From: Eledone cirrhosa
Taxonomy: Eukaryota
DNA length: 64,000 nt
Assembly (NCBI GenBank): GCA_964016885.1
Contig: OZ024751.1
Coordinates: forward strand, 42,346,001-42,410,000
Direction of reading: 5' to 3'
Shown here: piece by piece, positions 1,261 through 63,962 of the stretch
Numbering within the stretch: the stretch's first letter is position 1
How the letters are laid out: each line of letters opens with the position of its first letter
Translations under genes and position numbers: made by a program
The notes under the pieces: generated by a model
Told to the model about the DNA's origin: nothing
Databases searched by the model: none
What the model saw: the letters and a program-made list of their open reading frames with translations, nothing else

Positions 1261-2007
1261 ACTTCTACGGGACTAAAACTGTTTCATTCGTATGAAATCA
1301 TCAGGAATATATTAATATATATTCATAACCACCAGAATGTTCGTGTTTACAGCTATTGACACATACGTTACTCTAAAGAACTATACCAATTCTAAACCAT
1401 ATTTCCATTTTATTTCAAATTAAAGAAAAATAAACGAAGTTATATAATCTAAAATATATTTGATAGATATAAAATGAAAGTAAAGTATGAAGTGTGACGT
1501 GTGTATGTTTGCGAGTGAAAACACTTGTTTGTATAACGTGTCGATCTCAAACCAAGAACTTAAATTACTAATAAGAGAGCGAGATATACGACCAGAAACA
1601 AGATAAAGAATGCGTTTGAAATAAAGAACTTTATTGGTGTTGACGAAACCACAAAATGTAAACAGAACACATTTTGTGTACGAATGAAAAAAAGAAGTGG
1701 ATGGATATATGAAATTAATTTAACGAAAATTAATGCTTATTTTGTTTTGTTTTTAGAGGATTAGTAATACGGATGTACCATATTTCTTAGTTAATTAACA
1801 ACCATAAGAAACAGGTATATAATTACAGGTGTCAAAATAATAGACTTTATATGACATACGGCAGTGTTTAAAACTGTCACATGTATTATATAAACTGCCG
1901 GGTATTGTATAATCTAGATTACAAACAATTCTAAAATGGATGAAATGAAAAGTTATAAACAGAACAAATTAAAATGTTAATTAAATACGAATAAAAGAGT
2001 TATTTAC

Positions 2008-2084
2008 TTGGCATTCTCTTCAGTAATTTCTATGCCCAGCTTGGACAATTCTCCACAAAGCCAATCGACTAAACGAGCAGCCAT
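2008..2084 (-). CDS. TRIP4: TRIP4/ASC-1 (activating signal cointegrator 1) homolog, coding exon 1
   Basis: ATG at 2084 gives MAARLVDWLCGELSKLGIEITEENA plus AA, then a GT donor (GTAAAT) at 2007. It joins in phase to exon 2. The peptide resembles the TRIP4 N-terminus (human LVHWCTQQLRKTFGLDVSEEIIQYVLSI, recalled from memory). Confidence 0.85.
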
Positions 2085-2169
2085 GTTTTTACGATAATAT
2101 GGATTATCTGCCCATTGTTTCCTCTAACAACGGTTGAAATACAATCTTCTTTTTCGAGGAAGAATAATA

Positions 2170-2742
2170 GTTTTTAATTTAGGCACAAGGCCAACAATTT
2201 TGGAGGAGGGGGGTGGGGTCAATTAAATTGACTCAGTGCGTTACTGGTACATTATTTTATCGACTTAGGGCGGTGGATTGGCAGTATCGGTAGAGGGTCG
2301 GACGCCATGCTTTCCAGCATAGTTACGTCCCTTTACGATCTGAGTTCAAATCCCGCCGAGGTTGACTTTGCCTTTCATCCTTACGGGGTAGATAAAATAA
2401 AGTACCAGTAATGCACTGCGTAATTGCTGGCCTTGTGCCTAAAGTAGAAACAATTATTTTATCGACTCCGTAAAGATGATAGACAAAGCTAACCTCGGAG
2501 GGATTTGAACTCAGAACGTAAAGGAAGAATAAGGGTTTTTAATTTAGGCACAAGGCCAGCAATTCTTGCGGTGAAGGCGGGGCTGAGTTAATTTAATCGT
2601 TCACAGTACATTACTGGTACTTTATTTTATCGACCCCCTCCCCATATCCCGGATTTAAACTCAAAACGACGTAAAGAACCAGAACAAATACCACAAAGCA
2701 TTTTGTCCGACTCTCTAACAACTCTGCCTCGCCACCGCCCTG
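2170..2742. mobile_element. Cluster of tRNA-derived SINE family A copies (a + copy at ~2268-2457 nested in a - copy, plus a further - copy)
   Basis: Pol III A-box-like TGGCAGTATCGG and B-box GAGTTCAAATCC, central GACTTTGCCTTTCATCCTTACGGGGTCGATAAAATAAAGTACCAG (Meta/MESC-domain-like), tail GGCCTTGTGCCTAAAGTAGAAACAATTATT. Many near-identical copies occur across the window. Confidence 0.85.
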
Positions 2743-3475
2743 AGTAACAATAATAACACGTCTTATAGTATAATACCATTTTAGAAATTTGGTAAAAACT
2801 AATAAAACTCGGTTACTGGTACTTTAAAAAATAGAAGGCAAAAGGTCAAATGGGAGAGCGAAAAAAATATTTTTGTGTATTATATTTATAAGGTTCCTAG
2901 TAATAATTAATTGATTACATGTATGTACTTCTAATTAATCTTTGACAATAAAATATGTTCCACGTGGCTCTAAAGTGAGAGGTCGAGGAAATGAAACTAA
3001 ATATCTACTCCTCTCCCACCCACCTTTAGTCTTACGCAATCATTTGTAACTGAAGCATTATTGCACAATACGGGTCTTATAGATATACTTTTATTATAGA
3101 ATATTTTCGTTATTTAAATATCTATACTATACTAAGACACTTGTCTCTTGATCGTATAGTCTTTTAAGATACTGTGATCCTTCGGTAACAAAACTTATGT
3201 CTAAAAACGAAATACGTGAATCAGCGAAAAAAACCGTTATTCGTTTGCTATTCATAGATTTGTCAAAAAAAGTTGGTAATTTTTTATAATTACACCCGCT
3301 CTGCTTTGGAGGTCAAATTTATGTTTTCTTGTGTTAGAACGAATATGGTCTTCAAAAACATCGGAAACTGTTCGTTTTTCTATTAACTGAGGAAGATAGG
3401 GGCGCTGACGGTTTTGATGTTGACTACCTTCACACACATTATATATATATAAATATATATGTGTGTTGATTTACT

Positions 3476-3660
3476 ATATAGGTGACCCTCACATTTTCCT
3501 ATATCACTTACCTGTATTGATTCACACCTTCCTTTATCACTTACCTTACTTGTATTGATTCACAATACAGGTGACTCTCACATCTCCTATATCACTTACC
3601 TGTATTATCTGCTTCACTATACAGGTGACTCTCACATTTACCTATTTCACTTACCTGTAC
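3476..3660. repeat. Short diverged tandem repeat (~3 copies of TAGGTGACTCTCACAT...TATCACTTACCTGTA)
   Basis: The motif is directly visible three times. Confidence 0.7.
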
Positions 3661-3744
3661 AATAATGTCAGACAGCTTTCTGCATCTTCTTTTAATGTTC
3701 TGAGAGTTTTTTTAATCAACCATCTCAACCTCCATACCAGACCA

Positions 3745-4857
3745 TAGTGCCTGGCTCGAGGTGTAGTTAGCTAAAGGAATGTATGACCAGCTACTCCATG
3801 GTCAGTGCCTGGCTAGAGGTGTAGTTAGCTAAAGGAATGCATGACCAGCTACTCCATGGTCAGTGCCTGGCTAGAGGTGTAGTTGGCTAAAGGAATGTAT
3901 GACCAGCTACTCCATGGTCAGTGCCTGGCTCGAGGTGTAGTTGGCTAAAGGAATGTATGACCAGCTACTCCATGGTCAGCACCTGGCTAAAGGAATGTAT
4001 GACCAGCTACTCAATGGTCAGTGCCTGGCTAGAGGTGTAGTTGGCTAAAGGAATGTATGACCAGCTACTCAATGGTCAGTGTCTGGCTAAAGGAATGTAT
4101 GACCAGCTACTCAATGGTCAGTGCCTGGCTCGAGGTGTAGTTGGCTAAAGGAATGTATGACCAGCTACTCCATGGTCAGTGCCTGGCTAAAGGAATGTAT
4201 GACCAGCTACTCCATGGTCAGCACCTGGCTAAAGGAATGTATGACCAGCTACTTAATGGTCAGTGCCTGGCTCGAGGTGTAGTTGGCTAAAGGAATGTAT
4301 GACCAGCTACTCAATGGTCAGTGCCTGGCTAAAGGAATGTATGACCAGCTACTCAATGGTCAGTGCCTGGCTAGAGGTGTAGTTGGCTAAAGGAATGTAT
4401 GACCAGCTACTCAATGGTCAGCACCTGGCTCGAGGTGTAGTTGGCTAAAGGAATGTATGACCAGCTACTTAATGGTCAGTGCCTGGCTAGAGGTGTAGTT
4501 GGCTAAAGGAATGTATGACCAGCTACTTAATGGTCAGTGCCTGGCTAGAGGTGTAGTTGGCTAAAGGAATATATGACCAGCTACTCAATGGTCAGTGCCT
4601 GGCTAGAGGTGTAGTTGGCTAAAGGAATGTATGACCAGCTACTCCATGGTCAGTGCCTGGCTCGAGGTGTAGTTGGCTAAAGGAATGTATGACCAGCTAC
4701 TTAATGGTCAGTGCCTGGCTAGAGGTGTAGTTGACCAAAGGAATGTATGACCAGCTACTCAATGGTCAGTGCCTGGCTAGAGGTGTAGTTGGCTAAAGGA
4801 ATGTATGACCAGTTACTCAATGGTCAGTGCCTGGCTAGAGGTGTAGTTGGCTAAAGG
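3745..4857. repeat. Minisatellite, 58-bp unit interspersed with a 42-bp deletion variant
   Basis: Unit CAGTGCCTGGCTAGAGGTGTAGTTGGCTAAAGGAATGTATGACCAGCTACTCCATGGT, about 20 copies. Confidence 0.95.
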
Positions 4858-4858
4858 G

Positions 4859-4902
4859 ATATTTGTAGGTAGAGTGTAAATTTACACTCTACCTACAAAT
4901 AT
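4859..4902. repeat. Perfect 44-bp spacerless palindrome
   Basis: ATATTTGTAGGTAGAGTGTAAA|TTTACACTCTACCTACAAATAT. Confidence 0.95.
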
Positions 4903-5597
4903 TGAGTACTCATTCAGTTCATGTTTGAAATGTTTTAAGTACTACCACATTTTATACATCCAAACCATTCTAGTAAGATTTTAATTTAAATACAAACCAT
5001 TTAAAATGGGTTGCTTTGTTTCATAGAACAGAGGCAGATTTTACTGGGTTGGTATCAAAAAGATTAAAAGAACATTTTCTGAAGTAAAATAGTAGGTGCA
5101 AAAGACAAAGGTATTTATTGAGGTTTTTGGTTGGTGATAGGAAGGGCATCCAACCGTAGAAAGTTTGCCAAACAAAGGATTGGGAAGACAGTTTAGTTGT
5201 GTCAAAGACATGGCAACCTCTGTAGGGTTGGCACCATGATAAAATGTATTTGGTAGAGCACGAGACTGTAAATGAGATGCTGACACCCCACTCACACTTG
5301 GCCTGTCTGGGAGGTCAGTAACCGGACTTCAGTACTGCTTCAGTCGGTGAAGACACGTTCTACCCTTGCTAGCAGAGAAAGCAGTCGATGATGATGATAA
5401 TAATAAACAACAAACATCTATCAACAAATGGTTTAGTTAAGTTTAATAAGTATGACCCATGTTATTTTATCTAAAGTTGAATTTTTAATAAGTAGGTCTT
5501 GAAAATATAAAGTAAACATGAATTAAACTAGGTTAAGGGTGGTTGTGGAATTTTGAAATAACAACCCCACGTAAATGGGTATAACTTTCATCATTAT

Positions 5598-6840
5598 TGC
5601 GAAGGCCTTCAATTCTGTGCCACACAAAAGGCTTATGGCAAAACTCTCTGCAATGGGTGTGAAGGATGATCTTTTTAACTGGTTGAAGTCCTTCATTCTC
5701 AGTCGAAGAGAGGTAGTCACGGTTCTGGGACAGCATTCCTCACCATATGAGATGTCATCTGGTGTACCTCAGGGATCTGTTCTTGGCCCCCTTTTGTTTG
5801 TGGCATATATTAATGACATAGATGCCAACTTAAGGAATGCCACAGTACTAAAGTACGCAGACGACATCAAGCTGTACCTTGAGATAAAAAGGACAGATCC
5901 TGAACACTATAGATCTTGCTTGCAGTCTGACCTGGACACAATGCAACAGTGGATCTCAGACTGGCAACTCAAGCTAGCTGTGGACAAGTGCACCACCATG
6001 CATTTTGGGAGTAAAAACCCAGCGTCCACATACTCCCTCCACAGCACTAATATCAAGAAGTCTTCCTGTGAACGTGACCTGGGCATTACGGTCAGCAGCG
6101 ATTTGCATTGGACGAGGCACGTCTCTAAAATTGTCAAGAGGGCCGAGGGTGTCTTAGCATCACTCAGCAAGACCTTTGTCAGCCGCTCTCCAGATATCTA
6201 TTTAAGGCTGTATACAGCTATGGTGCGACCACACTTAGAATTTACATCACCAGTCTGGAACCCCTATCTTGCCCAGGACATTGACCGCCTGGAAACTGTT
6301 CAGAGACGTGCAACCAAGCGAATACCCTCCATCAGGCATCTACCATACTCTGAGCGCCTTGCTTCCCTGGGCATGGATTCATTGAAGCTCCGACGCCTGG
6401 CAACTGACTTGGTAAACACCCACAAAATTATTAACCATGTTGCCAACAACAACCCTGAGTGCCTTTTCGATTTCCATGTGTCTAACACACGTGGACATGC
6501 CCACAAAGTAAGAAAACAGCACAGTTCCCATGACTTTCGGAAACATTTTTTCACGCTCAGAGTTGCTGAAGCATGGAACAAACTACCTGCATCAGTTGTT
6601 AGCTGTCGAGACACTGCATCCTTTAAGGCCTCCATGCTTCCCGAGATCCGCCAACACTACAGCTAACACATACACACATGTACTTCCCTGACATTTGTGT
6701 ATTATTCTATGTACTTACCAGTAATGCACTGGATAATTGCTGGCCTTGTGCCTAACGTAGAAACAATTATTCTATGTACTATATTGACGAGTTGTAGTGC
6801 ACCTGAGCACTTTACACAATAATTTCATTATTATTATTAT
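5598..6840 (+). mobile_element. 5'-truncated CR1-type LINE (ORF2 RT C-terminal half, 3' UTR and (ATT)n tail)
   Basis: ORF with KAFNSVPH, SGVPQGSVLGPLLF, YADD, ERDLG, LYTAMVRPHLE, RGHAHK, WNKLP motifs; stop at 6666; ATT tail ending ~6840. Confidence 0.92.
6716..6765 (+). mobile_element. 5'-truncated SINE A fragment inserted in the CR1 3' UTR, with a 15-bp TSD
   Basis: ATTATTCTATGTACT flanks it at 6701-6715 and 6766-6780. The other CR1 3' UTR copies (7511-7595, 47340-47430) lack the insert. Confidence 0.85.
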
Positions 6841-6886
6841 TCATCACCTCCCGGAATTCTACCTTTTGAACAGGAAAATTTACAAT

Positions 6887-7074
6887 TTAACACTTTAGCA
6901 TTTAAACCGGCCAAAATTCTCTCATCTCTTTCTGTTCAAACCAGCCACTTATACTGATGTATTGTACTCAAAATAAATAATATAAAAATCTCAGATTCGA
7001 TATTATGTGAGATAAAGCCTTCACAATCGAAATATAATAGTAAATATAGAGTAATGTGAATACTAAAGGGTTAA
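6887..7074 (+). mobile_element. TTAA-flanked piggyBac-like MITE
   Basis: TTAA-CACTTTAGCATT...TACTAAAGGG-TTAA; homologous to the copies at 22586, 25043, 30845 and 31057. Confidence 0.75.
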
Positions 7075-7510
7075 AAAAAAAAAATCGATTTCACATCAGC
7101 CACACGAACCTTTTTGACTGTTGTTTTTAGCATGACGAAGAGACCATGTTGAGACTTCCTTGTTAGTTGTTGGGGAATAGCAGAAAGTTTAATTATATAT
7201 TTTAAACATTTTCTCTATGAAACCTAATTTTTTGATACGGGGTTGAATTGTGAATGTGACCAGTGGTTGACAAGTACCAGTTAAATACTGAGTTTGATGT
7301 AGTTGACTTTGACGTCCTCTCCCATAAAATTTACTGGCCTTCTGGTTCTGGTACCTAAATTAAAAACAACTGTTAAGAAATATACCACAAATATTTTGTG
7401 TGTGTGTGTGCTTGTATATATATATATATATATATATATATGTTTGCTATAATAAATCTTTGAAGGAATTTCACCAGTCGGGCCTCCTGTCATTTTACTC
7501 AATAATATAT

Positions 7511-8418: not shown

Positions 8419-8928
8419 TCAATGCTGGAGTGTTTCTTTATCAAACATATATTCACCAAGGCCGCTGCCCAACTGCTTCAGTTTGGAAATGTAATCGGAG
8501 ATTTTCTTAATATTTTCAACTTGTTTTCTAAGGACATTCTTCTTAAGAAATCCAACGAGCTGCGGGTCCCCGTATTTTTTACCACACTGGACCAAATTTA
8601 AGAATTGCTGGTTGATATTCTTTTCAATAACGAGAGAATATTCCATGGCAGTGGCACCACAATCCCAAAACGAAGCCTGGGGTGCGCCAATATTCTGTAA
8701 AATAACACGGCCACCACGTTTGTTTTGGTATTCCATAAGCTTATCTGCTTGTTGCAGGTGTTGTTGGTTTAATCGCTCAAAGAAGTGATGGAAACCTTTT
8801 AAAGCAACATCGCTTCTTTCGTAATGGGCAGCTTGGCATTGATTCTCGTATGCTGACTTGAGTAAGACATTGATGCACTCATTCACCATCTCTTCACAGC
8901 ACCGATGATAATTCTGGCGAGCAGACAT
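8419..8928 (-). CDS. Intronless ferritin-family protein (169 aa) with a degenerate ferroxidase centre
   Basis: ATG at 8928 (the ORF-track start at 8937 is TTG). Ferritin motifs RQNYH, DVALKGF, KLMEYQNKRGGR, AME..L..EKN.NQ, DPQL, QVE.IK, GLGEYMFDKETL are present in one uninterrupted ORF. Confidence 0.93.
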   Translation of the reverse strand: MSARQNYHRCCEEMVNECINVLLKSAYENQCQAAHYERSDVALKGFHHFFERLNQQHLQQADKLMEYQNKRGGRVILQNIGAPQASFWDCGATAMEYSLVIEKNINQQFLNLVQCGKKYGDPQLVGFLKKNVLRKQVENIKKISDYISKLKQLGSGLGEYMFDKETLQH

Positions 8929-10256
8929 TTTTAACAATGTTCAATGTTATTTTGTTACGACCGGTGATTGGGCAGAAAATGTTTCCGTGTGAAATATTAC
9001 CGTTGTTTATATCTATATTACAATTTTCAATATATTTACATTTTATTTGCTGGTCTTGTATCAATAGAAACAAATATATTTACAGCTTATATATATATAA
9101 ATACAATACTTAATTACATAAATATCTCATATAAAATCAAAACTAAACAAAACAACAATTCAACACCTGTGTGTCAATGGGTCAGAGACATTAGTTAGTT
9201 TGACTTTATCCACAGTTGTATAAATAACATTACAAATATAATGTCATTGATAAACACAAATATAAACGCATATAACAAATACAATTAACTATTGCTAGGA
9301 ACCTCACAAATTCAACACCAAAATATATGACCAGAGAGAAAGAAAAAGGGGGAAGCAAAAACAACCATCAATTCACCACCAAGTGCGATAATCAGCCGCA
9401 CATCACAAGGCTCAACGAAATATTTTGAAGCAAGCTAACACGCTCGCAGCATTACCACGAGTGATGGCGAGTCTAAGGTGCTGAAACAACCAAGCACCCA
9501 CACGGACATCACCTGACACCTCGGTAAGGCGAGTGGACAGCGATGACAAGAACTTCGCTGTCAGCAGCCCCGCTCCACCAAACGCCACAGGCTGGAAAAA
9601 AATAATTATTAGATAGATCCAGGTATTTCCGAATTTTATTCCGTTCGGTGTATATTTTCATTCTGTAAGAATTATAAACAATTTGTAATGTTATTTATAT
9701 AATCGTGAATAAAGTTAATTATTAGTAGATATACATATACAATGTAAAAAATACAACACATAAACTCTAGGAACTTTAGAACTTTATTAAAACACCATGA
9801 ACATATAAACACAAATTATACAACAAATGTGGTTTAAAAAACAAACAAATCATTGGAAATTAATCACAAAGAGAGAGACAACTCCAAAGAACACTATATG
9901 TGTCTAAAATAACGATTTCTAATGCTTCAATCAGAATGTAGCCATAGAATTACAAGAATAGTTCTTTTAAATGTCTTATACCTTTATAAGAAATTTATTA
10001 TATATATATCGATAGATAGATGTGTGTGTGCGTGAAATAATATCATATAACAAATATGTAAGATTAAATATAAATACAGACATACGTTGAATTAATTATT
10101 GCTAGGAACTTTATAAATATAATGTAATGGGTTAAATATTCCAATGACACGTGTACTTGTGATATAATTCCCAAGCTGAACCATAGTAACACATTCACAG
10201 TTTTTCTTTACCATATTTCAGTCAGAGTTGTTTCCCTTGCATTATTAAACGATTAA

Positions 10257-12795: not shown

Positions 12796-12826
<31 letters not shown>

Positions 12827-13203: not shown

Positions 13204-13257
13204 CTTGCTTATATATATATGTATATATATATATATGTGTATATATATATATGTGTA

Positions 13258-17778: not shown

Positions 17779-18043
17779 AAACGGAAAAAATGAAACGAAA
17801 TTTCATTTCCCACTCTTAGTACGGCTGTTACTTAAATATAAGTATGTACACGTACATGCATATATGTATACAGACGCACAGTAGTATGTATATATATATA
17901 CATACATGCACACATATATATATGTACGTATGGATTCACCAAACATTTATTATAATGCTCGGTGTGTTTGTAAACAAACATCCCGTATTAAGCCGTAGTG
18001 TCTAGCAACCATCGTTGCTCGTTTGTTCAACACTGACAAAGGA

Positions 18044-18086
18044 ACGCTGTACTAGTTTCAAGCTTATTAGCTATCGTCAGCAACGT
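18044..18086 (-). ncRNA. Minimal type-I hammerhead ribozyme motif (mirror copy)
   Basis: Exact reverse complement of the motif at 18153-18195. Confidence 0.75.
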
Positions 18087-18151
18087 ATACCTTCCTGCCA
18101 GATTGTTGAACGTATATACTTACCTTATGCATATTAACGGCTGAGTAGCCC

Positions 18152-18196
18152 AACGTTGCTGACGATAGCTAATAAGCTTGAAACTAGTACAGCGTT
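18152..18196 (+). ncRNA. Minimal type-I hammerhead ribozyme motif
   Basis: Stem I AACGTTG/CAGCGTT, core CTGACGA, stem II T-AGCT(AATA)AGCT-T, GAAA, palindromic stem III ACTAGT, GUA cleavage triplet. Confidence 0.75.
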
Positions 18197-18407
18197 CCTT
18201 TGTCAGTGTTGAACAAATGAGCAACGATGGTTGCTAGACACTACGGCTTAATACGGGATGTTTGTTTACAAACACATCGAGCATTATAATAAATGTTCGG
18301 TGAATCCATACGTACATGTAAATATGTGTGCATGTATGTATATATATATATACATACTACTGTGCGTCTATACATATATGTATGTACGTGTACATACTTA
18401 TATATAT

Positions 18408-30248: not shown

Positions 30249-30424
30249 ACAATTGTTTCACCTTAGCGGAACCTCAGCTCGTAATTACGAGCTGAGGATC
30301 TGCTAAGGTGAAACAATTGTTCTCGGTATGGTGAACTAACTGTTGTGTAACCACTTCTACCTAACTCGTCACATAGACTGAGTGCTCTACCACTACGGAT
30401 ATTACCTTCCAGTGTTCTACCACT
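30249..30424 (+). mobile_element. Short element starting with a 72-bp near-perfect palindrome that contains a hammerhead motif; ends in (TA)n
   Basis: Palindrome 30249-30320 centred at 30284/30285 with 2 mismatches; unique 3' extension to CCAC(TA)n. Confidence 0.6.
30288..30325 (+). ncRNA. Minimal type-I hammerhead ribozyme motif
   Basis: Stem I CGAG/CTCG, core CTGAGGA, weak stem II T-CT(GCTAA)GG-T (the mirror arm has CC/GG), GAAA, palindromic ACAATTGT, GUU triplet. Confidence 0.6.
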
Positions 30425-30498
30425 ATATATATATAGAGAGAGAGATAGATACATATGGTCATGTTTGTAAAGTCAAATCACCACCACCACTACCACCA

Positions 30499-39107: not shown

Positions 39108-40250
39108 TAATAATAATAATGAAATTATTGTGTACAGTGCTCAGGTGCACTACAACTCATCAAAGGTGCATGTATAGTACATAGAATAATGTACAAATGT
39201 CAGGAAAATGAACAGTGTATGAGTCATGATATAATAATAATAATAATAATAATAATGAAATTATTGTGTACAGTACCCAGGTGCACCACAACTCATCAAA
39301 AAGTGCATGTACAGTACATAGGGCAATGCAAAAACATCAGTAAAATGAACAGTGCACGAGTCATGATACACACATGTGTGCATGTGTATGGAAGGGGTAC
39401 ATCAGGTGTAGTTTTGGCATATTTCGGGAAGCATGAGTGTCTTAAAGGATGCAGTGTCTCGGCAGCTAACAACTGATGCAGGCAGTTTGTTCCATGCTTC
39501 AGCAACTCTGAGCATGAAAAAATGTCTACGAAAGTCATGGGAGCTGTGCTGTTTTCTGATTTTGTAGGCATGTCCACGTGTGTTAGACACATGTAGATCA
39601 AAAAGGTGCTCAGGGTTGCAATTGGCGAGATGGTTAATAACTTTGTGGGTATTCACCAAGTCCATTGCCAGACGTCGGAGCTTCAATGAATCCATGCCCA
39701 GGGAAGCAAGGCGTTCAGAGTATGGTAGGTGTCTGATGGAGGGTATGCGCTTGGTTGCACGTCTCTGAACAGTTTCCAGGAGGTCAATGTTCTGAGCAAG
39801 ATAGGGGTTCCAGACTGATGATGCGAATTCCAAGTGTGGTCGTACCATAGCTGTATACAGTTTTAAATAGATGGCTGGAGAGCGGCTAACAAAGGTCTTG
39901 CTGAGTGATGCCAAGACACCTTCGGCCTTCTTGACAATCTTAGAGACATGCTTTGTCCAACGCAAATCACTGCTGACAGTAATGCCCAGGTCACGTTCAC
40001 AAGAAGACTTCTTGATATCAGTGTTGTGGAGGGAGTATGTGGACGCTGGATTTTTCCTTCCAAAATGCATGGTGGTACACTTGTCCACAGCCAGCTTCAG
40101 TTGCCAGTCTGTGATCCATTGCTGCATTGTGTCCAGGTCTGATTGTAGGAAAGAGTTGTAAATTTCAGGATCAGTCCTTTTGATTTCAAGGTACAGCTTG
40201 ATGTCATCTGCATATTTTAGTACCGTGGCATTCTGTAAGTTGGCATCTAT
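39108..40250 (-). mobile_element. 5'-truncated CR1-type LINE with a duplicated 3' UTR
   Basis: Highly similar to the copy at 5598 (KYADD, ERDLG, WNKLP; ORF end 39402). Two 3' UTR/ATT-tail units lie at ~39108-39229 and ~39230-39400. Confidence 0.9.
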
Positions 40251-41284
40251 GGATGTTAAGAGATAATACTGAAAATGTTCACACTTATTTATCCACCAGT
40301 AAAGAAACTATAAACTTTTCTGAATCATTCTGCTGAATCAATACAGGATGTTTAGACATAATATGACAAATAACTTGGTTATTTTCAAAATTAATTGAAA
40401 ATCATGGGCAGTGCGTTTCATTAAAAATATGGTAACGAAAGAGTTAAATCAATATGTATTGATTAATTGCTTAGATACAAGACCAATATTTATTGCTAAG
40501 CTAAACATTGGTTTTATACATCAATTTCTGTGTCAGTTATGGCTGTGGTCACATGACACTTTTATTTACATATTAGTCAGTGGCATGTATTGATGAGCAG
40601 GATGTGTGCCTGTGTGTGTATGTATGTGTGTGTAGTGTGTCAGTGTATGTGTGTTTGGTGTGTGTGTGTAGTGTGTATGTGTGTGTAATGTGTGTGTGTA
40701 TATGTATGTAATGTGTGTGGTGTGTATATGTATGTAATGTGTGTGTGTATATGTATGTAATGTGTGTGTGGTGTATGTGTGTGTGTATATGTATGTAACG
40801 TGTGTGGTGTGTATATGTATGTAATGTGTGTGTGTATATGTATGTAATGTGTGTGTGGTGTGTATATGTATGTAATGTGTGTATATATGTATGTAATGTG
40901 TGTGTGGTGTATGTGTGTGTGTATATGTATGTAACGTGTGTGTGTGTATATGTATGTAATGTGTGTGTGTGTATATGTATGTAATGTGTGTGTGGTGTAT
41001 GTGTGTGTGTATATGTATGTAACATGTGTGTGGTGTGTGTGTATGTGTGTGTATATGTATGTAATGTGTGTGTGTGTGTGTGGTGTGTAATGGAAGGGCT
41101 AAAGAAACAGACAGTGTCTTTCATTAGAAATATGGTAAGAAAAAGGTTAAAACAATTTAGAAAGTATCTCAACAAGAGAATTATTGGTTGCTAAACCTCT
41201 TATCAATAAAATAGCAACAGTCAATTTTGACATTCCTTAGTTTAGCACCAGTTCAACTGTTCATCATTCCGTTAAAATACCATA

Positions 41285-42050: not shown

Positions 42051-42298
42051 CAAGATGGCGTAGGACAGAACGAAGGAGAGGCACAAAACAAAGAAAAGAA
42101 TCCCCAGTCACTGAAGAGGTCACAGAATGTGTGACGAAAGAACTTTGACAATATATGAACAGCCGTCTGGTTGTGGAACCAACCAACCAACCGGAAATTT
42201 ACAAATTTCTTAAATTTATAAATTTAATTTATAATAAATTGGAGTGAAAGCAACTGGTGCGTGTGTTTCTTATTGGCAACATGACCCTCCCAAAGTAT

Positions 42299-52396: not shown

Positions 52397-53258
52397 CAAG
52401 TTACATCCCTAATATTTTGAAAATTTAAATAAAAGGGTTGATCAAATAGATATCATTTACAAATTTATAAAGTTAACCCCTATTCAATATCTTAATTCAG
52501 TATCTTAATTCCATAGTTATTGTTTGTTTTGTCTGTACACAATATACAATATGGCTGCTGGTGCTGTGTTTAAATGGTAAGTCAAAGAAAGAACTGTTTA
52601 CAAGATATCTCAGCTCTATGAAGAAAAAAAAACAAAAACATTACAAATCTTTCTCTTTTTCTTTTTATCTCTTCTCCTCTTTCTCTCACTCTCTCCTCCT
52701 CTATTTTCCATCATTCTCTTTTCCTTTCTCCCCTCTCTCTTTCTCTTTGTTTCATATTTCTCTCTCCTCTTCTCCTTTTCTCTCTCTCTCTCTCTACCTA
52801 CCTACCTATCTATCTATCTATCTCTCTCTTTTTCTTCCCTTTTCACCATCTTCACCTCTTTCCCCTTTCTCACCATTTACCTCTCTTCCTTTCTCCCTTC
52901 TCTCTTTCTCTCTGTTTCATCTTTCTCTCTCTCTCCTTCTCATCTTTCTCCTCTACTCTCTCTCTCTCTCTCTCTCACCATTTACCTCTCTCTTCCTCTC
53001 TCACACTGTCTCCTATTTCCCTCTCCTCTCCATTTCCCTACCCCATCCATTACTCCGTTCTCCCCATGAAAAACAAGGGTGACTCAGATACCTACCCTCT
53101 CCTATCCCTACCCCCTCAACCGTTCTATTTAACTCAACACATTGCTATAGTATTATTATATTCCGCTAGAATATTGATTCAAATTTTCTTCTGAATTGCT
53201 GATTGAAGTCAATTAAGTCGGATGAGATAATTTCTTTTAATATAAAAAAAAAAATAAC

Positions 53259-56200
53259 CATTGAAACTTCCAACTAAAATACTCAAACATAATATCTTCC
53301 ACAAAATAGACATTCAAACTTCCAACTAAAATATTCAAACATAATATCTGCCACAAAATAGACATTCAAACTTCCAACTAAAATATTCAAACATAATATC
53401 TACCACAAAATAGACATTCAAACTTCCAACTAAAATACTCAAACATAATATCTACCACAAAATAGACATTCAAACTTCCAACTAAAATACTCAAACATAA
53501 TATCTACCACAAAATAGACATTCAAACTTCCAACTAAAATATTCAAACATAATATCTTCCACAAAATAGACATTCAAACTTCCAACTAAAATATTCAAAC
53601 ATAATATCTTCCACAAAATAGACATTCAAACTTCCAACTAAAATATTCAAACATAATATCTACCACAAAATAGACATTGAAACTTCCAACTAAAATACTC
53701 AAACATAATATCTTCCACAAAATAGACATTGAAACTTCCAACTAAAATATTCAAACATAATATCTTCCACAAAATAGACATTGAAACTTCCAACTAAAAT
53801 ATTCAAACATAATATCTTCCACAAAATAGACATTGAAACTTCCAACTAAAATATTCAAACATAATATCTACCACAAAATAGACATTGAAACTTCCAACTA
53901 AAATACTCAAACATAATATCTTCCACAAAATAGACATTGAAACTTCCAACTAAAATATTCAAACATAATATCTTCCACAAAATAGACATTCAAACTTCCA
54001 ACTAAAATATTCAAACATAATATCTACCACAAAATAGACATTCAAACTTCCAACTAAAATACTCAAACATAATATCTACCACAAAATAGACATTCAAACT
54101 TCCAACTAAAATACTCAAACATAATATCTACCACAAAATAGACATTCAAACTTCCAACTAAAATACTCAAACATAATATCTACCACAAAATAGACATTCA
54201 AACTTCCAACTAAAATACTCAAACATAATATCTTCCACAAAATAGACATTGAAACTTCCAACTAAAATACTCAAACATAATATCTACCACAAAATAGACA
54301 TTCAAACTTCCAACTAAAATATTCAAACATAATATCTTCCACAAAATAGACATCGAAACTTCCAACTAAAATATTCAAACATAATATCTACCACAAAATA
54401 GACATTGAAACTTCCAACTAAAATATTCAAACATAATATCTACCACAAAATAGACATTGAAACTTCCAACTAAAATATTCAAACATAATATCTACCACAA
54501 AATAGACATTGAAACTTCCAACTAAAATACTCAAACATAATATCTTCCACAAAATAGACATTGAAACTTCCAACTAAAATATTCAAACATAATATCTTCC
54601 ACAAAATAGACATTGAAACTTCCAACTAAAATATTCAAACATAATATCTTCCACAAAATAGACATTCAAACTTCCAACTAAAATATTCAAACATAATATC
54701 TACCACAAAATAGACATTCAAACTTCCAACTAAAATACTCAAACATAATATCTACCACAAAATAGACATTCAAACTTCCAACTAAAATACTCAAACATAA
54801 TATCTACCACAAAATAGACATTCAAACTTCCAACTAAAATACTCAAACATAATATCTACCACAAAATAGACATTCAAACTTCCAACTAAAATATTCAAAC
54901 ATAATATCTTCCACAAAATAGACATTCAAACTTCCAACTAAAATATTCAAACATAATATCTTCCACAAAATAGACATTCAAACTTCCAACTAAAATATTC
55001 AAACATAATATCTACCACAAAATAGACATTGAAACTTCCAACTAAAATACTCAAACATAATATCTTCCACAAAATAGACATTGAAACTTCCAACTAAAAT
55101 ATTCAAACATAATATCTTCCACAAAATAGACATTGAAACTTCCAACTAAAATATTCAAACATAATATCTTCCACAAAATAGACATTGAAACTTCCAACTA
55201 AAATATTCAAACATAATATCTACCACAAAATAGACATTGAAACTTCCAACTAAAATACTCAAACATAATATCTTCCACAAAATAGACATTGAAACTTCCA
55301 ACTAAAATATTCAAACATAATATCTTCCACAAAATAGACATTCAAACTTCCAACTAAAATATTCAAACATAATATCTACCACAAAATAGACATTCAAACT
55401 TCCAACTAAAATACTCAAACATAATATCTACCACAAAATAGACATTCAAACTTCCAACTAAAATACTCAAACATAATATCTACCACAAAATAGACATTCA
55501 AACTTCCAACTAAAATACTCAAACATAATATCTACCACAAAATAGACATTCAAACTTCCAACTAAAATACTCAAACATAATATCTTCCACAAAATAGACA
55601 TTGAAACTTCCAACTAAAATACTCAAACATAATATCTACCACAAAATAGACATTCAAACTTCCAACTAAAATATTCAAACATAATATCTTCCACAAAATA
55701 GACATCGAAACTTCCAACTAAAATATTCAAACATAATATCTACCACAAAATAGACATTGAAACTTCCAACTAAAATATTCAAACATAATATCTACCACAA
55801 AATAGACATTGAAACTTCCAACTAAAATATTCAAACATAATATCTACCACAAAATAGACATTGAAACTTCCAACTAAAATACTCAAACATAATATCTTCC
55901 ACAAAATAGACATTGAAACTTCCAACTAAAATATTCAAACATAATATCTTCCACAAAATAGACATTGAAACTTCCAACTAAAATATTCAAACATAATATC
56001 TTCCACAAAATAGACATTCAAACTTCCAACTAAAATATTCAAACATAATATCTACCACAAAATAGACATTCAAACTTCCAACTAAAATACTCAAACATAA
56101 TATCTACCACAAAATAGACATTCAAACTTCCAACTAAAATACTCAAACATAATATCTACCACAAAATAGACATTCAAACTTCCAACTAAAATATTCAAAC

Positions 56201-59200
56201 ATAATATCTTCCACAAAATAGACATTCAAACTTCCAACTAAAATATTCAAACATAATATCTTCCACAAAATAGACATTCAAACTTCCAACTAAAATATTC
56301 AAACATAATATCTACCACAAAATAGACATTGAAACTTCCAACTAAAATACTCAAACATAATATCTTCCACAAAATAGACATTGAAACTTCCAACTAAAAT
56401 ATTCAAACATAATATCTTCCACAAAATAGACATTGAAACTTCCAACTAAAATATTCAAACATAATATCTTCCACAAAATAGACATTGAAACTTCCAACTA
56501 AAATATTCAAACATAATATCTACCACAAAATAGACATTGAAACTTCCAACTAAAATACTCAAACATAATATCTTCCACAAAATAGACATTGAAACTTCCA
56601 ACTAAAATATTCAAACATAATATCTTCCACAAAATAGACATTCAAACTTCCAACTAAAATATTCAAACATAATATCTACCACAAAATAGACATTCAAACT
56701 TCCAACTAAAATACTCAAACATAATATCTACCACAAAATAGACATTCAAACTTCCAACTAAAATACTCAAACATAATATCTACCACAAAATAGACATTCA
56801 AACTTCCAACTAAAATACTCAAACATAATATCTACCACAAAATAGACATTCAAACTTCCAACTAAAATACTCAAACATAATATCTTCCACAAAATAGACA
56901 TTGAAACTTCCAACTAAAATACTCAAACATAATATCTACCACAAAATAGACATTCAAACTTCCAACTAAAATATTCAAACATAATATCTTCCACAAAATA
57001 GACATCGAAACTTCCAACTAAAATATTCAAACATAATATCTACCACAAAATAGACATTGAAACTTCCAACTAAAATATTCAAACATAATATCTACCACAA
57101 AATAGACATTGAAACTTCCAACTAAAATATTCAAACATAATATCTACCACAAAATAGACATTGAAACTTCCAACTAAAATACTCAAACATAATATCTTCC
57201 ACAAAATAGACATTGAAACTTCCAACTAAAATATTCAAACATAATATCTTCCACAAAATAGACATTGAAACTTCCAACTAAAATATTCAAACATAATATC
57301 TTCCACAAAATAGACATTCAAACTTCCAACTAAAATATTCAAACATAATATCTACCACAAAATAGACATTCAAACTTCCAACTAAAATACTCAAACATAA
57401 TATCTACCACAAAATAGACGTTCAAACTTCCAACTAAAATACTCAAACATAATATCTACCACAAAATAGACATTCAAACTTCCAACTAAAATACTCAAAC
57501 ATAATATCTTCCACAAAATAGACATTGAAACTTCCAACTAAAATACTCAAACATAATATCTACCACAAAATAGACATTCAAACTTCCAACTAAAATATTC
57601 AAACATAATATCTTCCACAAAATAGATATCGAAACTTCCAACTAAAATATTCAAACATAATATCTACCACAAAATAGACATTGAAACTTCCAACTAAAAT
57701 ACTCAAACATAATATCTTCCACAAAATAGACATTCAAACTTCCAACTAAAATATTCAAACATAATATCTACCACAAAATAGACATTCAAACTTCCAACTA
57801 AAATACTCAAACATAATATCTACCACAAAATAGACATTCAAACTTCCAACTAAAATACTCAAACATAATATCTACCACAAAATAGACATTCAAACTTCCA
57901 ACTAAAATACTCAAACATAATATCTACCACAAAATAGACATTCAAACTTCCAACTAAAATACTCAAACATAATATCTTCCACAAAATAGACATTGAAACT
58001 TCCAACTAAAATACTCAAACATAATATCTACCACAAAATAGACATTCAAACTTCCAACTAAAATATTCAAACATAATATCTTCCACAAAATAGACATCGA
58101 AACTTCCAACTAAAATATTCAAACATAATATCTACCACAAAATAGACATTGAAACTTCCAACTAAAATATTCAAACATAATATCTACCACAAAATAGACA
58201 TTGAAACTTCCAACTAAAATATTCAAACATAATATCTACCACAAAATAGACATTGAAACTTCCAACTAAAATACTCAAACATAATATCTTCCACAAAATA
58301 GACATTGAAACTTCCAACTAAAATATTCAAACATAATATCTTCCACAAAATAGACATTGAAACTTCCAACTAAAATATTCAAACATAATATCTTCCACAA
58401 AATAGACATTCAAACTTCCAACTAAAATATTCAAACATAATATCTACCACAAAATAGACATTCAAACTTCCAACTAAAATACTCAAACATAATATCTACC
58501 ACAAAATAGACGTTCAAACTTCCAACTAAAATACTCAAACATAATATCTACCACAAAATAGACATTCAAACTTCCAACTAAAATACTCAAACATAATATC
58601 TTCCACAAAATAGACATTGAAACTTCCAACTAAAATACTCAAACATAATATCTACCACAAAATAGACATTCAAACTTCCAACTAAAATATTCAAACATAA
58701 TATCTTCCACAAAATAGATATCGAAACTTCCAACTAAAATATTCAAACATAATATCTACCACAAAATAGACATTGAAACTTCCAACTAAAATACTCAAAC
58801 ATAATATCTACCACAAAATAGACATTCAAACTTCCAACTAAAATATTCAAACATAATATCTACCACAAAATAGACATTCAAACTTCCAACTAAAATATTC
58901 AAACATAATATCTTCAACAAAATAGACATTCAAACTTCCAACTAAAATATTCAAACATAATATCTTCCACAAAATAGACATTGAAACTTCCAACTAAAAT
59001 ATTCAAACATAATATCTTCCACAAAATAGACATTGAAACTTCCAACTAAAATATTCAAACATAATATCTACCACAAAATAGACATTGAAACTTCCAACTA
59101 AAATATTCAAACATAATATCTACCACAAAATAGACATTGAAACTTCCAACTAAAATATTCAAACATAATATCTACCACAAAATAGACATTCAAACTTCCA

Positions 59201-60151
59201 ACTAAAATATTCAAACATAATATCTACCACATAATAGACATTCAAACTTCCAACTAAAATACTCAAACATAATATCTTCCACAAAATATACATTCAAACT
59301 TCCAACTAAAATACTCAAACATAATATCTTCCACAAAATAGACATTGAAACTTCCAACTAAAATATTCAAACATAATATCTACCACAAAATAGACATTGA
59401 AACTTCCAACTAAAATATTCAAACATAATATCTACCACAAAATAGACATTGAAACTTCCAACTAAAATATTCAAACATAATATCTACCACAAAATAGACA
59501 TTGAAACTTCCAACTAAAATACTCAAACATAATATCTACCACAAAATAGACATTCAAACTTCCAACTAAAATATTCAAACATAATATCTACCACAAAATA
59601 GACATTCAAACTTCCAACTAAAATATTCAAACATAATATCTTCAACAAAATAGACATTCAAACTTCCAACTAAAATATTCAAACATAATATCTTCCACAA
59701 AATAGACATTGAAACTTCCAACTAAAATATTCAAACATAATATCTTCCACAAAATAGACATTGAAACTTCCAACTAAAATATTCAAACATAATATCTACC
59801 ACAAAATAGACATTGAAACTTCCAACTAAAATATTCAAACATAATATCTACCACAAAATAGACATTGAAACTTCCAACTAAAATATTCAAACATAATATC
59901 TACCACAAAATAGACATTCAACTTCCAACTAAAATATTCAAACATAATATCTACCACATAATAGACATTCAAACTTCCAACTAAAATACTCAAACATAAT
60001 ATCTTCCACAAAATAGACATTCAAACTTCCAACTAAAATACTCAAACATAATATCTACCACAAAATAGACATTCAAACTTCCAACTAAAATATTCAAACA
60101 TAATATCTTCCACAAAATAGACATTGAAACTTCCAACTAAAATACTCAAAC
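53259..60151. repeat. 52-bp satellite array, ~132 copies
   Basis: Unit CATT(C/G)AAACTTCCAACTAAAATA(C/T)TCAAACATAATATCT(A/T)CCACAAAATAGA. Confidence 0.98.
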
Positions 60152-60480
60152 TATGTAGTTCAGAATGTTGGAGAGTGTTAAAAGAAAACTTGAATAAGAT
60201 CAATATTTTCACTAACAGCTACTTGAGAAAAATCTGCCGCATCTTCTGGCACAAAATAGACATTGAGACTACTTCTTCTTCATCTATTTTTTCACCCACT
60301 TATTCCTGAGAGGATCGTGGGGGCAGAGTCCTCAAACACTCCTTCCAGCCAATCCTGTCAGAAGCAACCGTCTCCAACTGATCCAGTTAGATCTCCAAGC
60401 AAGAACAGCCAAGTTCATGGATGTAATGTTATCCCACCATCTTACTCAGGGTCTTCCTCTCGCTCTCTTGACGTCAATAC
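60152..60480. mobile_element. Degraded RTE-type LINE fragments (+ then -)
   Basis: The + strand gives SECWRV...NSYLRKICRIFW. The - strand gives KRARGRP*VRWWDNI followed by a (GAA)n tail. Confidence 0.6.
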
Positions 60481-60799
60481 TTTCAACTAAAATACTTAAA
60501 TCTTTCACTGAGATTTTATACAATTATTTATTTTCTTGTGTTTATTTAATTTACTTTTGATGCTGTTTGTTTTTAATGTTGTTTGTTTTTGTTGTTTTGG
60601 GTGCTGTTGTTTTTGTTGGTCTTGGTTCCATTGATGTTTTTTTTGTCATTTATTGTTTGTTGTTTTTTGTTGTTGCTTGTTTTTAATTTACCCCCCCCCC
60701 CACTCTTTTCAAATAAAAAAACTCATCATTTCTTTGATATTTCTTTTCAAACTTCTCAATTGTAAGACAATTGATATTAAATCATTGTGTTTGTGTGAG

Positions 60800-62525
60800 T
60801 GTAAGTGTGTATATGCGTGTATGTATATATATATGTATGTGTGTATATATGTGTATATATATGTGTGTGTGTATATGTTTGTGTGTATGTGTGTGTGTAT
60901 ATCATCATCATTTCATTTTACGTCCGCTTTTCCCTGCTTGCAAGGGTATATATATGTATGTATGTATGTATATATGTTTGTGTGTGTATATATATATATA
61001 TATGTATATATGTTTGTGTGTATATATATATATGTATGTGTGTATATATATATATGTATGTGTGTATATAGGTTTGTGTGTATGTGTGTGTACATATATA
61101 TATGTATGTATGTATGTATATATGTTTGTGTGTATATATATATATGTATGTGTATATGTTTGTGTGTGTATATATATATATGTGTATGTGTGTATATATG
61201 TTTGTGTGTATATATATATATGTATGTGTGTATATATGTTTGTGTGTATATATATATATATATGTATGTGTGTATATATGTTTGTGTATATATATATATG
61301 TATGTGTGTATATATGTTTGTGTGTATATATGTATGTATATGTATGTGTATATATGTTTGTGTGTGTATATATGTATATGTATGTGTATATATGTTTGTG
61401 TGTATATATATATATATGTGTGTGTGTGTATATATGTTTGTGTGTATATATGTATGTATGTGTGTGTAGTTATGTTTGTGTGTATATATGTATGTATGTG
61501 TGTGTATATATATATGTATGTATATATGTGTGTGTGTGCATTAATGTAAATATTTGTCTCTTTGTGAGGTGAGTTAGTGACTTTGAACAAAAAAATAATT
61601 GTCTCATTGAAGACAGCATGCAGTGAAGTGGAATTGCCACCACCATCATCACCACCACCATCACCACCACCACTACCACCACCACCACCACCATCATCAC
61701 CACCACTTCCACTACCACCACTACCACCACCATCACCACCATCACCACCACTACCCCCCCATCATCACCACCATCATCACTACCACCATCATCACCACCA
61801 CTACCACCACCACCACCACCACCACCATCATCACCACCACTTCCACTACCACCACTACCACTACCACCACCATCACCACCACTACCCCCCCCCCATCATC
61901 ACCACCATCATCACTACCACCATCATCACCACCACCACCACCACCACCACCACCACCACCACCACCACCATCATCACCACCACTTCCACTACCACCACTA
62001 CCACCACCATCATCACCACCACCACCACTACCACTACCACCACCACCACCATCATCACCACCATCATCACCACCACCACCACTACCACCACCACCATCAT
62101 CACCACCATCATCACCACCACTACCACTACCACCACCACCATCATCACCACCATCACCACCACCACTACCACTACCACCACCCTCATCACCACCATCATC
62201 ACCATCACTAGCACCACTACCATCACCACCACCACCATCATCACCATCACTAGCACCATCACCACCACTACCACTACCACCACCACCATCATCACCACCA
62301 TCACCACTACCATCACCACCACCACCATCATCCCCATCACCAACGCCATGACCATTACCATCAGCATCACTACCACCATCATCACCACCATCACCATCAT
62401 CACCATCACTACCATCACCATCACCATGACCATTGCCATCACCACCACCACCACTATCACCACCATCACTGCCATGACTACCACCATCACCACCACCACC
62501 ACCACCACTACTACTACTACTATCA
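60800..62525. repeat. (TA/TG)n field followed by a (CCA/CAT)n field
   Basis: Direct inspection. Confidence 0.93.
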
Positions 62526-62747
62526 CTAAATTCTATATAACCTCATATGTAAGTTCAATATGCTTCCAATTTCACCATGATTGATTGTATAGGAACAATA
62601 TTTACCAATAAGATCATAGCAAAGAGTTTATTTGCAAAGAAATGGAATAAACAAAAACCCCAAAATAAAAAATCTGTTTTTTTAAAATCAATTTAATATT
62701 AACATTGAGTATTAATAAAAAAAAAAAAAAGCGATAGGTAGAGGGAT

Positions 62748-62778
<31 letters not shown>

Positions 62779-63504
62779 GAGAGAGAGAGGAGATAAGATA
62801 TTTAGATAGAGAGAAATAAATATATATGTATATATAGAGAGAGAGTGAGTGAGTGAGAGGGAGAGAGAGATACTAAAAAATGTCCAAACATTAATTTCTT
62901 TGCGAATTATTTCCTTTTTTTCTTTCTTTGAATAATATTTATAGATTTTATTTTCGCCAGGATTTAGTAACAGAAATGTTTACCTTTTATTACAATATAT
63001 TACCTTTTATTACAATATATTACCTTTTATTACAATGTGGTTTAACCTATAATATAAAACAAATACAAGAGTTTTAATAGCTGAGTAGATAAGGTGTGAA
63101 TTGGTTTTTTTCCCCTTCACAAGCCACAAGTCTATATCTTACCTAAGATTGCTATGTTGTTGTCAGACATGTAACTAGGGTATAGCAGGCATACCAAGCA
63201 TGGCACATACCATGGACGCCACTTGGATTAGGTACCTCTTAACCACTCAATCCACTATATCCCCTTACGTACATCCCTGCACCCCTACACCACTCTCATT
63301 TCTGCCCACACTGCCCTTATCACAAAAGCACCCAGCCTACACTGTAAAGTGGTCATGTAAGTGTCACAACAAAAAGCACCCAGCACACACTGTAAATGTG
63401 GTTGGCATTAAGAAGGGCATCGAGCCAAAGAAATCTAGCCAGAAACAGTTTTATATGATTTAACTTGTCTCTAATGGGAGGATGTTAAACGATGATGATG
63501 ATAT

Positions 63505-63769
63505 CATCATTTTCATTTCATTTTACGTCCGCTTTTCCCTGCTTGCAAGGGTGGGACGGGAACTGATTCTGGCTTGATTTCTACAGCTGGATGCCCTTCC
63601 TAACACCAACCTCATTTACAGTGAGTGCTGGGTGCTTTTTTGCCGTGGCATCTCCACGACCACTTTGCAGTGGAATGATATGGGCCCCAGTCCCTATCAT
63701 CTCATTTCTACAGCTGAGTAAACTGGAGCAATGTGAAATAAAGTGTCTTGCTCAAGGAAACAACACATC
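63505..63769 (-). mobile_element. SINE family B copy (5'-truncated)
   Basis: Match to family B. Confidence 0.85.
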
Positions 63770-63849
63770 ATACATATATATTGATATATATATATATAGT
63801 GAAAGATTGAAGAATAACATGGTCGGCTGTACAAAAAGGTTTTATTTCT

Positions 63850-63962
63850 AGTACTAACAATTGTTTCATTGATCAGGTGAGTCTAAAGACCGCTAATCAC
63901 TCGAAGTTGCGTCACTCGACCTTAAATACAGCGTTTACCTCTGGTCAAATCATCGGAATACT
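63850..63962 (-). ncRNA. Hammerhead-like motif with an extended stem II (core U4 to C)
   Basis: Minus strand: stem I AGTATT/AGTACT, CCGATGA, T-TTGACCAG..64 nt..CTGATCAA-T, GAAA, palindromic ACAATTGT, GUU triplet, then AATAAA and a (TA)n end. Confidence 0.55.

Follow-up and report, generated by a model that had tools for sequence, protein, structure and literature searches.

Results

Hammerhead folds with a U·U at the base of stem II

The window, that is the whole 64,000-nt stretch of Eledone cirrhosa DNA that we analysed, contains five hammerhead motifs with this mismatch at four loci, together with one conventional hammerhead (Table 1). We scanned both strands for the core C(U/C)GANG(A/U), GAAA and NUH, with at least 4 bp in stem I and at least 2 bp in stem II, leaving the first stem II position free. 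This descriptor returned four matches (18159+, 18080-, 30292+ and 63956-), and in all four of these strict type I folds positions 10.1 and 11.1 are U·U. The same mismatch occurs in all five motifs (loci 1-4 and the mirror of locus 1) in place of the Watson-Crick pair, which is a consensus feature of type I hammerheads rather than an absolute one. The remaining core letters (C3-A9, G12-A14, A15.1-U16.1 and H17) are present, with U4C at locus 3, as are three stems with an open stem I, supported by covariation. Block-wise dinucleotide shuffling of the window (100 shuffles) gave on average 0.11 matches of any kind, 0.01 with U·U and 0.0 of the strict form, so the shared pattern singled out by the first-pass annotation is real. 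The flanks, which it had called unrelated, are not anonymous, since every one of the loci is a repeat-family terminus.

Table 1. Hammerhead motifs and the repeats that carry them, in window coordinates.
Feature	Position	Strand	Details
Locus 4 hammerhead	1260..1309	-	core at 1304-1298; U·U; stem II of 3 bp
Inverted pair, partial copies of 422-bp tandem retrozyme-like unit	17785..18406	both	94-100% identity to array L041 unit
Mirror of locus 1 hammerhead	18043..18087	-	core at 18080, sequence identical to locus 1
Locus 1 hammerhead	18152..18196	+	stem I 18152-58/18190-96, core 18159-65
3' end (pLTR fragment and tail), assigned to a Hydra-clade Penelope-like element	30249..30435	both	85-97% to family copies
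Locus 2 hammerhead	30288..30325	+	4-bp stem I, U10.1 30299, U11.1 30309
Conventional Penelope-like element hammerhead	42107..42149	+	bulged nucleotide and G10.1-C11.1; 42111+
3' end of second Hydra-type Penelope-like family	63799..63962	-	ends in (TA)n
Locus 3 hammerhead	63850..63962	-	core CCGAUGA with C4; U·U; long stem II
82-nt stem II/loop II domain	63868..63949	-	GUA..AGAC internal loop conserved, AG/AG tandem

The pattern extends far beyond the window. Two genome-wide counts yielded 7,151 U·U matches (control 0) and 46,816 (control 119), giving ~54,000 against ~120. When motifs were selected by core letters only, both stems paired in 10 of 22 clusters, compared with none of four in the reversed control. 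By rough extrapolation the genome carries ~4×10^5 hammerhead motifs, a load for which we found no parallel in the literature searched. Rfam models miss the U·U motifs, as had been anticipated: the best hit of locus 1 (HH9) scored 15 bits against a gathering threshold of 52, and locus 3 matched no hammerhead family. Among the 150 of 201 Rfam matches listed for the whole window, all were to microRNA models, mostly on microsatellites, and none reached threshold. A TATA-like box 36-38 nt upstream is not general: of 16 family representatives, only 3 have it.

The carriers are Penelope-like elements and a retrozyme-like repeat

At locus 1, U10.1 is 18166 and U11.1 is 18179; the motif has a 4-bp stem II and a palindromic stem III, and its predicted cut falls after A18189. 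The minus copy of the inverted pair (18159-17785) and the plus copy (18153-18406) derive from a unit that recurs head to tail in array L041, where seven ribozymes, one type I hammerhead per unit, are spaced 416-423 bp apart. Folded as a circle, a single unit gives z = -6.4. A tblastn search found no reverse transcriptase or endonuclease (RT/EN) match in arrays L041-L044, and we found no ORF linked to the family. From its repeat layout, which is that of retrozymes, we assign locus 1 to an ORF-less, retrozyme-like 422-bp tandem repeat. Among the variants listed from four sets of public contigs of unrecorded kind, changes to this ribozyme fall at N7, in loop II and at the two partners of a single stem I pair, and none at the core or U·U positions.

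Locus 2 also has a palindromic stem III, with a predicted cut after U30321. Its stem II is only 2 bp, which qualifies the earlier statement that stems pair at loci 1-3. The end-piece sits between (TA)n tracts and carries an inverted truncated copy (30285-30249) in which A9 has become U and which stops short of the cleavage nucleotide. One full element of this family, L282, has two 385-bp pLTRs in direct repeat, each with a ribozyme and the ribozymes 2,577 bp apart, and a 722-aa open stretch; this single RT ORF with a C-terminal GIY-YIG-type endonuclease fits into an element under 3 kb, with the ribozyme ~190 nt after the ORF. L282-L289 contain DKT, RWR (K>R relative to RWK), a CxCX5C linker and C-terminal CGLC and CPH. 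The L282 ORF resembles Hydra-1_Obim when compared by eye, and Pfam recognised no family in the Penelope-like element ORFs. A pattern-matching U·U ribozyme lies 146-205 nt downstream in 24 of the 30 best endonuclease matches, and the other six copies (decayed or interrupted) have none; many family copies end directly in a (TA)n or similar tract. By these motifs, rather than by an RT tree, we place the locus 2 family among Hydra-clade Penelope-like elements. The pLTR and ORF links, with the 422-bp arrays, bear out the proposal that Penelope-like elements and a retrozyme-like repeat carry the motifs.

Locus 4 had been described as decayed, but it is more intact than that: stems I-III and a GUA site (1268-1266) can be traced, and its family pattern has 925 matches against none in the control. 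Stem I is 3 bp, and stem III is a 4-bp stem (one mismatch) with an 8-nt loop, so it is not the short palindrome claimed for these motifs. No linked ORF was found in 45 loci with 1.5-kb flanks, and most copies of the family start at the ribozyme. The conventional hammerhead at 42107..42149 offers a contrast within the window to the U·U motifs, having a bulge and a G-C pair; its family follows an endonuclease of another, Neptune-like kind at a distance of ~210-240 nt.

A covarying loop II domain at locus 3

Locus 3, with a predicted cut after U63856, belongs to an end-piece; an inverted piece of tail comes before it and extends beyond the window end. Its U4C is a known natural hammerhead variant, with a viroid example (PMC3088659). 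Endonuclease remnants of 26-46% identity, with a CNCHLPDKC-type linker that conforms to CxCX5C, lie ~800 nt upstream on the same strand in 3 of 20 fetched family copies (L144, L156 and L158).

The helices of the long stem II/loop II domain covary across 12 divergent copies. As RNAalifold gave no consensus for the 12 long-loop sequences, we specified a structure manually and then counted, which biases the count towards the chosen structure. Readings of the insert as a twister, hairpin or SECIS element were dropped; Rfam gave no such match. The conserved domain is a candidate protein-binding module. We found no covarying loop II domain of ~80 nt in print, although Lunse 2017 and Arkhipova 2017 may describe the U·U variant or long loops.

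U·U is one of several states at 10.1/11.1

Homologous elements in the genome exchange U·U for C-G, C·A, A-U, G-C, G·U or A·A; examples are C-G at 86.6% identity over 253 nt, C·A at 77% over 389 nt and A-U at 98.7% over 381 nt. Naturally occurring sister forms of a 310-bp repeat have either U·U or A-U. These exchanges bear on the register of the two uridines. Penelope-like element hammerheads conserve a nucleotide that sits between 9 and 10.1 (PMC4209133), so the first U might be such a bulge and the second an insertion before GAAA, and at locus 1 an adjacent A could pair with either U. We give this shift of register hardly any credence: homologues of the same length have C-G or A-U at exactly both positions, and the bulge register leaves 0 pairs at loci 2 and 3. 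The two Us occupy 10.1 and 11.1, as first described.

Another reading takes the mismatch as a catalytic variant (selected, slower or regulated) that would mark out a distinct ribozyme subclass of the host lineage. U·U forms the majority of short GAAAC..GUH-type motifs (~54,000 against ~27,800 net with non-U at 10.1) and recurs in at least 10 sequence clusters. The copy numbers, however, stem from a few families and arrays that have been amplified, and of the 55 motifs found with a wider descriptor in an unselected 400-kb sample only 7 are U·U. It is also interchangeable within homologous elements and in print for other phyla, having been tabulated in Hydra, sea cucumber, sea louse and Drosophila willistoni (PMC8557442, PMC4209133). 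Contrary to the first-pass annotation, U·U is not a fixed trait of the host lineage, and we consider a ribozyme subclass defined by it very improbable. Nor is the variant new. The U10.1-U11.1 mismatch was described in 2011 in the main text of Perreault et al. (PMC3088659), and it appears in families of File S2 of Craig 2021 (PMC8557442) and in two rows of Fig S3 of Cervera 2014 (PMC4209133).

Discussion

Our preferred reading, to which we assign a probability of about 0.8, is that these are type I hammerheads at the pLTR 3' ends of Hydra-clade Penelope-like elements and in an ORF-less 422-bp repeat, that they are probably slow self-cleaving ribozymes, acting as dimers or assisted by the element's protein, and that U·U is one tolerated state of a relaxed first stem II pair. 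By analogy with Penelope-like element and retrozyme biology, a pLTR promoter would make the RNA, and two ribozymes of one tandem transcript would pair through their palindromic stems III and cut after GUA or GUU. The 422-nt monomer would be circularised, and a Penelope-like element reverse transcriptase would then copy it back into (TA)n sites. Against this reading, the hammerhead is absent from the minimum-energy monomer folds of loci 2, 3 and 4, and the locus 3 family combines U4C with U·U, both rate-lowering (PMC3088659). The Penelope-like element hammerhead is reported to be protein-assisted, the insertion substrate being uncut RNA (PMC11167929). Inserted copies here retain the part 5' of the cut site, from which we infer that uncut RNA was the template and that a slow ribozyme costs its element little. 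The window copies are truncated or inverted end-pieces and are likely passive.

That insertions retain the uncut form also fits a motif kept as a folded RNA signal, for RT-endonuclease binding or as a landmark for the start of reverse transcription, that has lost its cutting activity, in which case relaxed catalysis would account for U·U, A·A, C·A and U4C. The many mismatch states at 10.1/11.1 point the same way, as does the report that catalytic mutants leave insertion in vitro unaffected (PMC11167929). Moreover, 5' ends lie within 10 nt of the core in 17 of 30 family-4 copies, 8 of 28 family-2 copies and four of the five window motifs (by a gapped measure, the ungapped one being confounded by subfamily indels). 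But the core letters are fixed across families with wholly different stems, no other mispair is reported to be as active as U·U (PMC3088659, with reference to earlier mutagenesis), and the monomer-length tandem arrays fit cleavage-based retrozyme replication. We regard loss of cutting as unlikely and retain slow cleavage as the preferred account.

A more far-reaching proposal is that this genome, with on the order of 4×10^5 hammerheads in dozens of Penelope-like and retrozyme families, exceeds any count in the print searched, and that one Hydra-type clade has a conserved ~80-nt RNA domain, comprising an AG/AG tandem and a loop E-like internal loop, within loop II of a hammerhead whose core is weakened by U·U or A·A and often by U4C. 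The domain would be a docking site through which cleavage comes to require the protein of the element itself. We offer this whole as a speculation, with a modest chance of being right.

As a ribozyme variant, U·U changes little, being published and of known tolerance. In such genomes, tens of thousands of motifs escape any descriptor or Rfam model in which a 10.1-11.1 pair is obligatory. Naturally occurring sister repeats, near-identical and with U·U versus A-U as their sole difference, provide material for testing whether Penelope-like element hammerheads are tuned to be slow, a comparison that bears on what these ribozymes do.

Comparison with known systems

The variant of Perreault et al. 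2011 (PMC3088659) has the same U·U mismatch at the stem II base, and that paper also describes stems II of 2 bp, palindromic but weak stems III and the viroid U4C; it is rare natural variation there and is found in tens of thousands of repeat copies here. The Hydra-clade hammerheads of Craig et al. 2021 (PMC8557442) share the 3' position, the (TA)n targets, the size under 3 kb and an ORF with DKT, CxCX5C and, at its C terminus, GIY-YIG. In File S2 of that paper CUGANGA-U..U-GAAAC occurs in 14 of 25 tabulated families; the table calls the motifs canonical, with U·U unremarked there, and the octopus family has G·U. Its Hydra rows lack the 80-nt loop II domain, unlike the locus 3 clade.

Metazoan non-LTR retrozymes (Cervera and De la Pena 2020, PMC7229834; Li et al. 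2026 preprint) are likewise short head-to-tail repeats with one type I hammerhead each and a strongly folded unit. They range from 170 to 400 nt; the 422-bp unit, known here from DNA repeats, lies just above, and its stem III is of the minimal Penelope-like element type, unlike theirs. The 450-bp HHR2 arrays of D. willistoni (Cervera 2014 Fig S5A, PMC4209133) run head to tail and have U..U as well. With the minimal metazoan Penelope-like element hammerheads of Cervera and De la Pena 2014 (PMC4209133) our motifs share the short palindromic stem III, predicted activity as dimers, and widespread solo and inverted copies. The bulge and G10.1-C11.1 of that minimal consensus are found here with Neptune-like families and not at loci 1-4.

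U·U hammerheads in the window

The first-pass annotation had described four hammerhead loci sharing a U-U mispair (U·U) at positions 10.1/11.1, the first position of stem II, and all four are present as claimed. A hammerhead descriptor that left this position unconstrained gave only U·U matches, four in all, against means of 0.11 matches of any type and 0.01 U·U matches in 100 block-wise dinucleotide shuffles of the window. Locus 4 is absent from these matches because its stem III is longer; rather than a random decayed core, it belongs to a family whose pattern has 925 genome matches and none in the control. Standard models do miss such motifs, as predicted: Rfam makes no call at locus 1 (HH9, 15 bits where 52 are required), and nothing matched at locus 3. 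The window motifs are real and were read correctly, and the families they belong to are new, within element types already known.

Features of the window
Feature	Position	Strand	Details
Locus 1 hammerhead	18159	+	U·U
Locus 1 mirror	18080	-	U·U
Locus 2 hammerhead	30292	+	U·U
Locus 3 hammerhead	63956	-	U·U
Locus 4 hammerhead	core 1304	-	stem III 4 bp + 8-nt loop; GUA site 1268-1266; stem I 3 bp
Loop II domain, locus-3 clade	63868-63949	-	also fetched loci L100, L144, L158, L181, L243, L263-L277
Conventional hammerhead	42107-42149 (core 42111)	+	bulge + G-C; presumed Neptune-like PLE family
Ferritin ORF	8419-8940	-	intronless; gene or retrocopy; Pfam PF00210
Exon-like stretch	346-747	-	match to TRI4 N-terminal domain, PF23135
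Reverse transcriptase remnant	5575-6666	+	LINE-like, PF00078; related to next
Reverse transcriptase remnant	39402-40307	-	LINE-like, PF00078; related to previous
Tandem satellite	53251-60151		52 bp, 132.7 copies, 97% matches, strong skew

Carrier elements

The proposal that the carriers are Penelope-like elements (PLEs) or retrozymes stands for loci 2 and 3, whose families have a Hydra-type endonuclease, and locus 1 derives from a tandem repeat; a search for ORFs linked to the locus-1 or locus-4 families found none. Among the best 30 matches to the endonuclease region of the locus-2 family, 24 are followed 146-205 nt downstream by a pattern-matching U·U ribozyme, and the remaining six are decayed or interrupted. 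One full copy (L282) has 385-bp direct repeats with a ribozyme in each and an open stretch of 722 aa with RWR, DKT, YRDD and CxCX5C; CxxC and CxH are visible in sister copies, and the N-terminus resembles that of Hydra-1_Obim by eye. Motifs of this set mark the Hydra clade (PMC8557442), and, judged by these motifs, the locus-2 family would belong to it. In locus-3 copies, a same-strand Hydra-type endonuclease remnant lies ~800 nt upstream in 3 of 20 fetched, with 26-46% identity to the locus-2 protein. The bulge + G-C form sits behind a different endonuclease, which we take to be Neptune-like.

Locus 1 consists of two partial units, inverted relative to each other, of a 422-bp head-to-tail repeat. 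Folded as a circle, one unit of this repeat reaches -129 kcal/mol, with z = -6.4 relative to 60 shuffles. Two further tandem hammerhead repeats occur, one of 310 bp in closely related U·U and A-U forms (L083, with the 310-bp period, L174 and L187) and one of 466 bp (L292, L293) with G-C and a stem III identical to that of locus 1.

Lability of positions 10.1/11.1

At the U·U positions, homologues of the locus-1 unit carry C-G (86.6% identity over 253 nt) or C·A (77% identity over 389 nt), and the U·U and A-U forms of the 310-bp repeat are 98.7% identical. Of 42 distinct locus-3 clade sequences, 32 have U·U; the others are A·A (6), A-U (2), A·G (1) and G·U (1). Because homologues hold other pairs at these two positions, the two Us are, as had been proposed, a substitution at 10.1/11.1, and the position is relaxed rather than fixed. 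When public contigs of unrecorded kind were placed on the 422-bp unit at a 10% threshold, the variants listed within the locus-1 ribozyme fell at N7, in loop II and at both partners of one stem I pair, where U·G becomes G·U or A-U, with none among them in the core or at the U·U positions.

A structured insert in loop II

Members of the locus-3 clade carry a 70-82 nt insert in loop II, often together with a C4 core. Across 12 divergent intact copies (from 16 representatives, four with deletions being excluded), a hand-named structure has 79% paired cells, against 64% when shuffled and 31-42% when slid, with two-sided changes at 15 of its 26 pairs, among them 6 of the 13 inside the insert; RNAalifold by itself gave no consensus for these copies, and only 62% is reached in the apical helix, which is weak. 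GUA and AGAC hardly vary, in part because the search required them, and resemble a loop E motif. A non-exhaustive literature search found no account of loop E in stem II. A related pattern has 716 genome matches against 11 in the control; as its gap does not suit every copy, this number is too low or otherwise inexact. Other families too have long inserts in loop II, unrelated in sequence (L101, L164:8139 (+), L040, L071, L121, L168).

Abundance in the genome

Across the 3.0-Gb assembly, the locus-2 pattern has 7,151 matches (reversed control 0), a general U·U pattern in which any base but C follows the first U has 46,816 (119), its counterpart with a non-U at 10.1 has 33,009 (5,174), and G-C forms whose loop III has 3 nt give 8,479 (32). 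All are pattern matches, and arrays and inverted pairs raise the counts. In an unselected sample of 40 evenly spaced 10-kb stretches (L162-L201, 400 kb), a wider descriptor found 55 hammerhead-like motifs of many families (reversed control 1): 18 have A-U (11 of these come from two arrays), 9 have G-C and 4 have C·A, bulge + G-C and U·U account for 7 each, and 10 are of other types. Some have GAAAU..AU or GAAAG..CU stems III. If the sample is representative, the genome total is very roughly 4x10^5. Selection by core letters only, in 1.19 Mb of overlapping and enriched fetched loci, gave 395 matches that fall into 22 clusters, both stems being paired in 10 of them; the control gave 5 matches in 4 clusters, none paired.

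Mechanism

The anatomy, position and covariation of the ribozymes are observed. By analogy with PMC4209133 and PMC7229834, two ribozymes of one tandem RNA would pair through their short palindromic stems III (computed duplex energies -4.8 and -6.4 kcal/mol) and cut after GUA/GUU, and retrozyme monomers would then be circularised. Being on opposite strands, mirror copies could not act as dimer partners in one transcript. Monomer folds of loci 2-4 did not yield the hammerhead, which counts against catalysis. In PMC11167929, a PLE hammerhead was active only in the presence of the element's protein, and the insertion substrate was uncut RNA; this fits the copies in this genome, which retain the portion 5' of the cut site.

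In tallies that include reference copies, the 5' end is no more than 10 nt from the core in 17 of 30 family-4, 8 of 28 family-2 and 0 of 15 family-1 copies, and in four of the five window motifs. This suggests that RNA may start, or reverse transcriptase stop, at stem I. Copies often start or invert at the 5' edge of stem I, 5-8 nt ahead of the core (loci 1-4; L222-L251). Three families have a TATA-like box 36-38 nt upstream.

Comparison with known hammerheads

A non-exhaustive literature search found no account of octopus hammerheads, and the main text of the Octopus vulgaris repeat annotation paper contains neither "hammerhead" nor "ribozyme". The U·U form itself is not new: it was described in 2011 as a rare natural variation (Perreault 2011, PMC3088659). 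It is also listed for 14 Hydra-clade families, of Hydra, Apostichopus and Caligus, out of 25, the others having G-C, G·U or U·C (Craig 2021 File S2, PMC8557442), and in 2 of 56 rows, from Hydra and D. willistoni, taken from PDF text with a displaced GAAA column (Cervera 2014 Fig S3, PMC4209133). What Eledone cirrhosa adds to this known variant is the number of copies, together with a loop II domain of which the literature search found no description.
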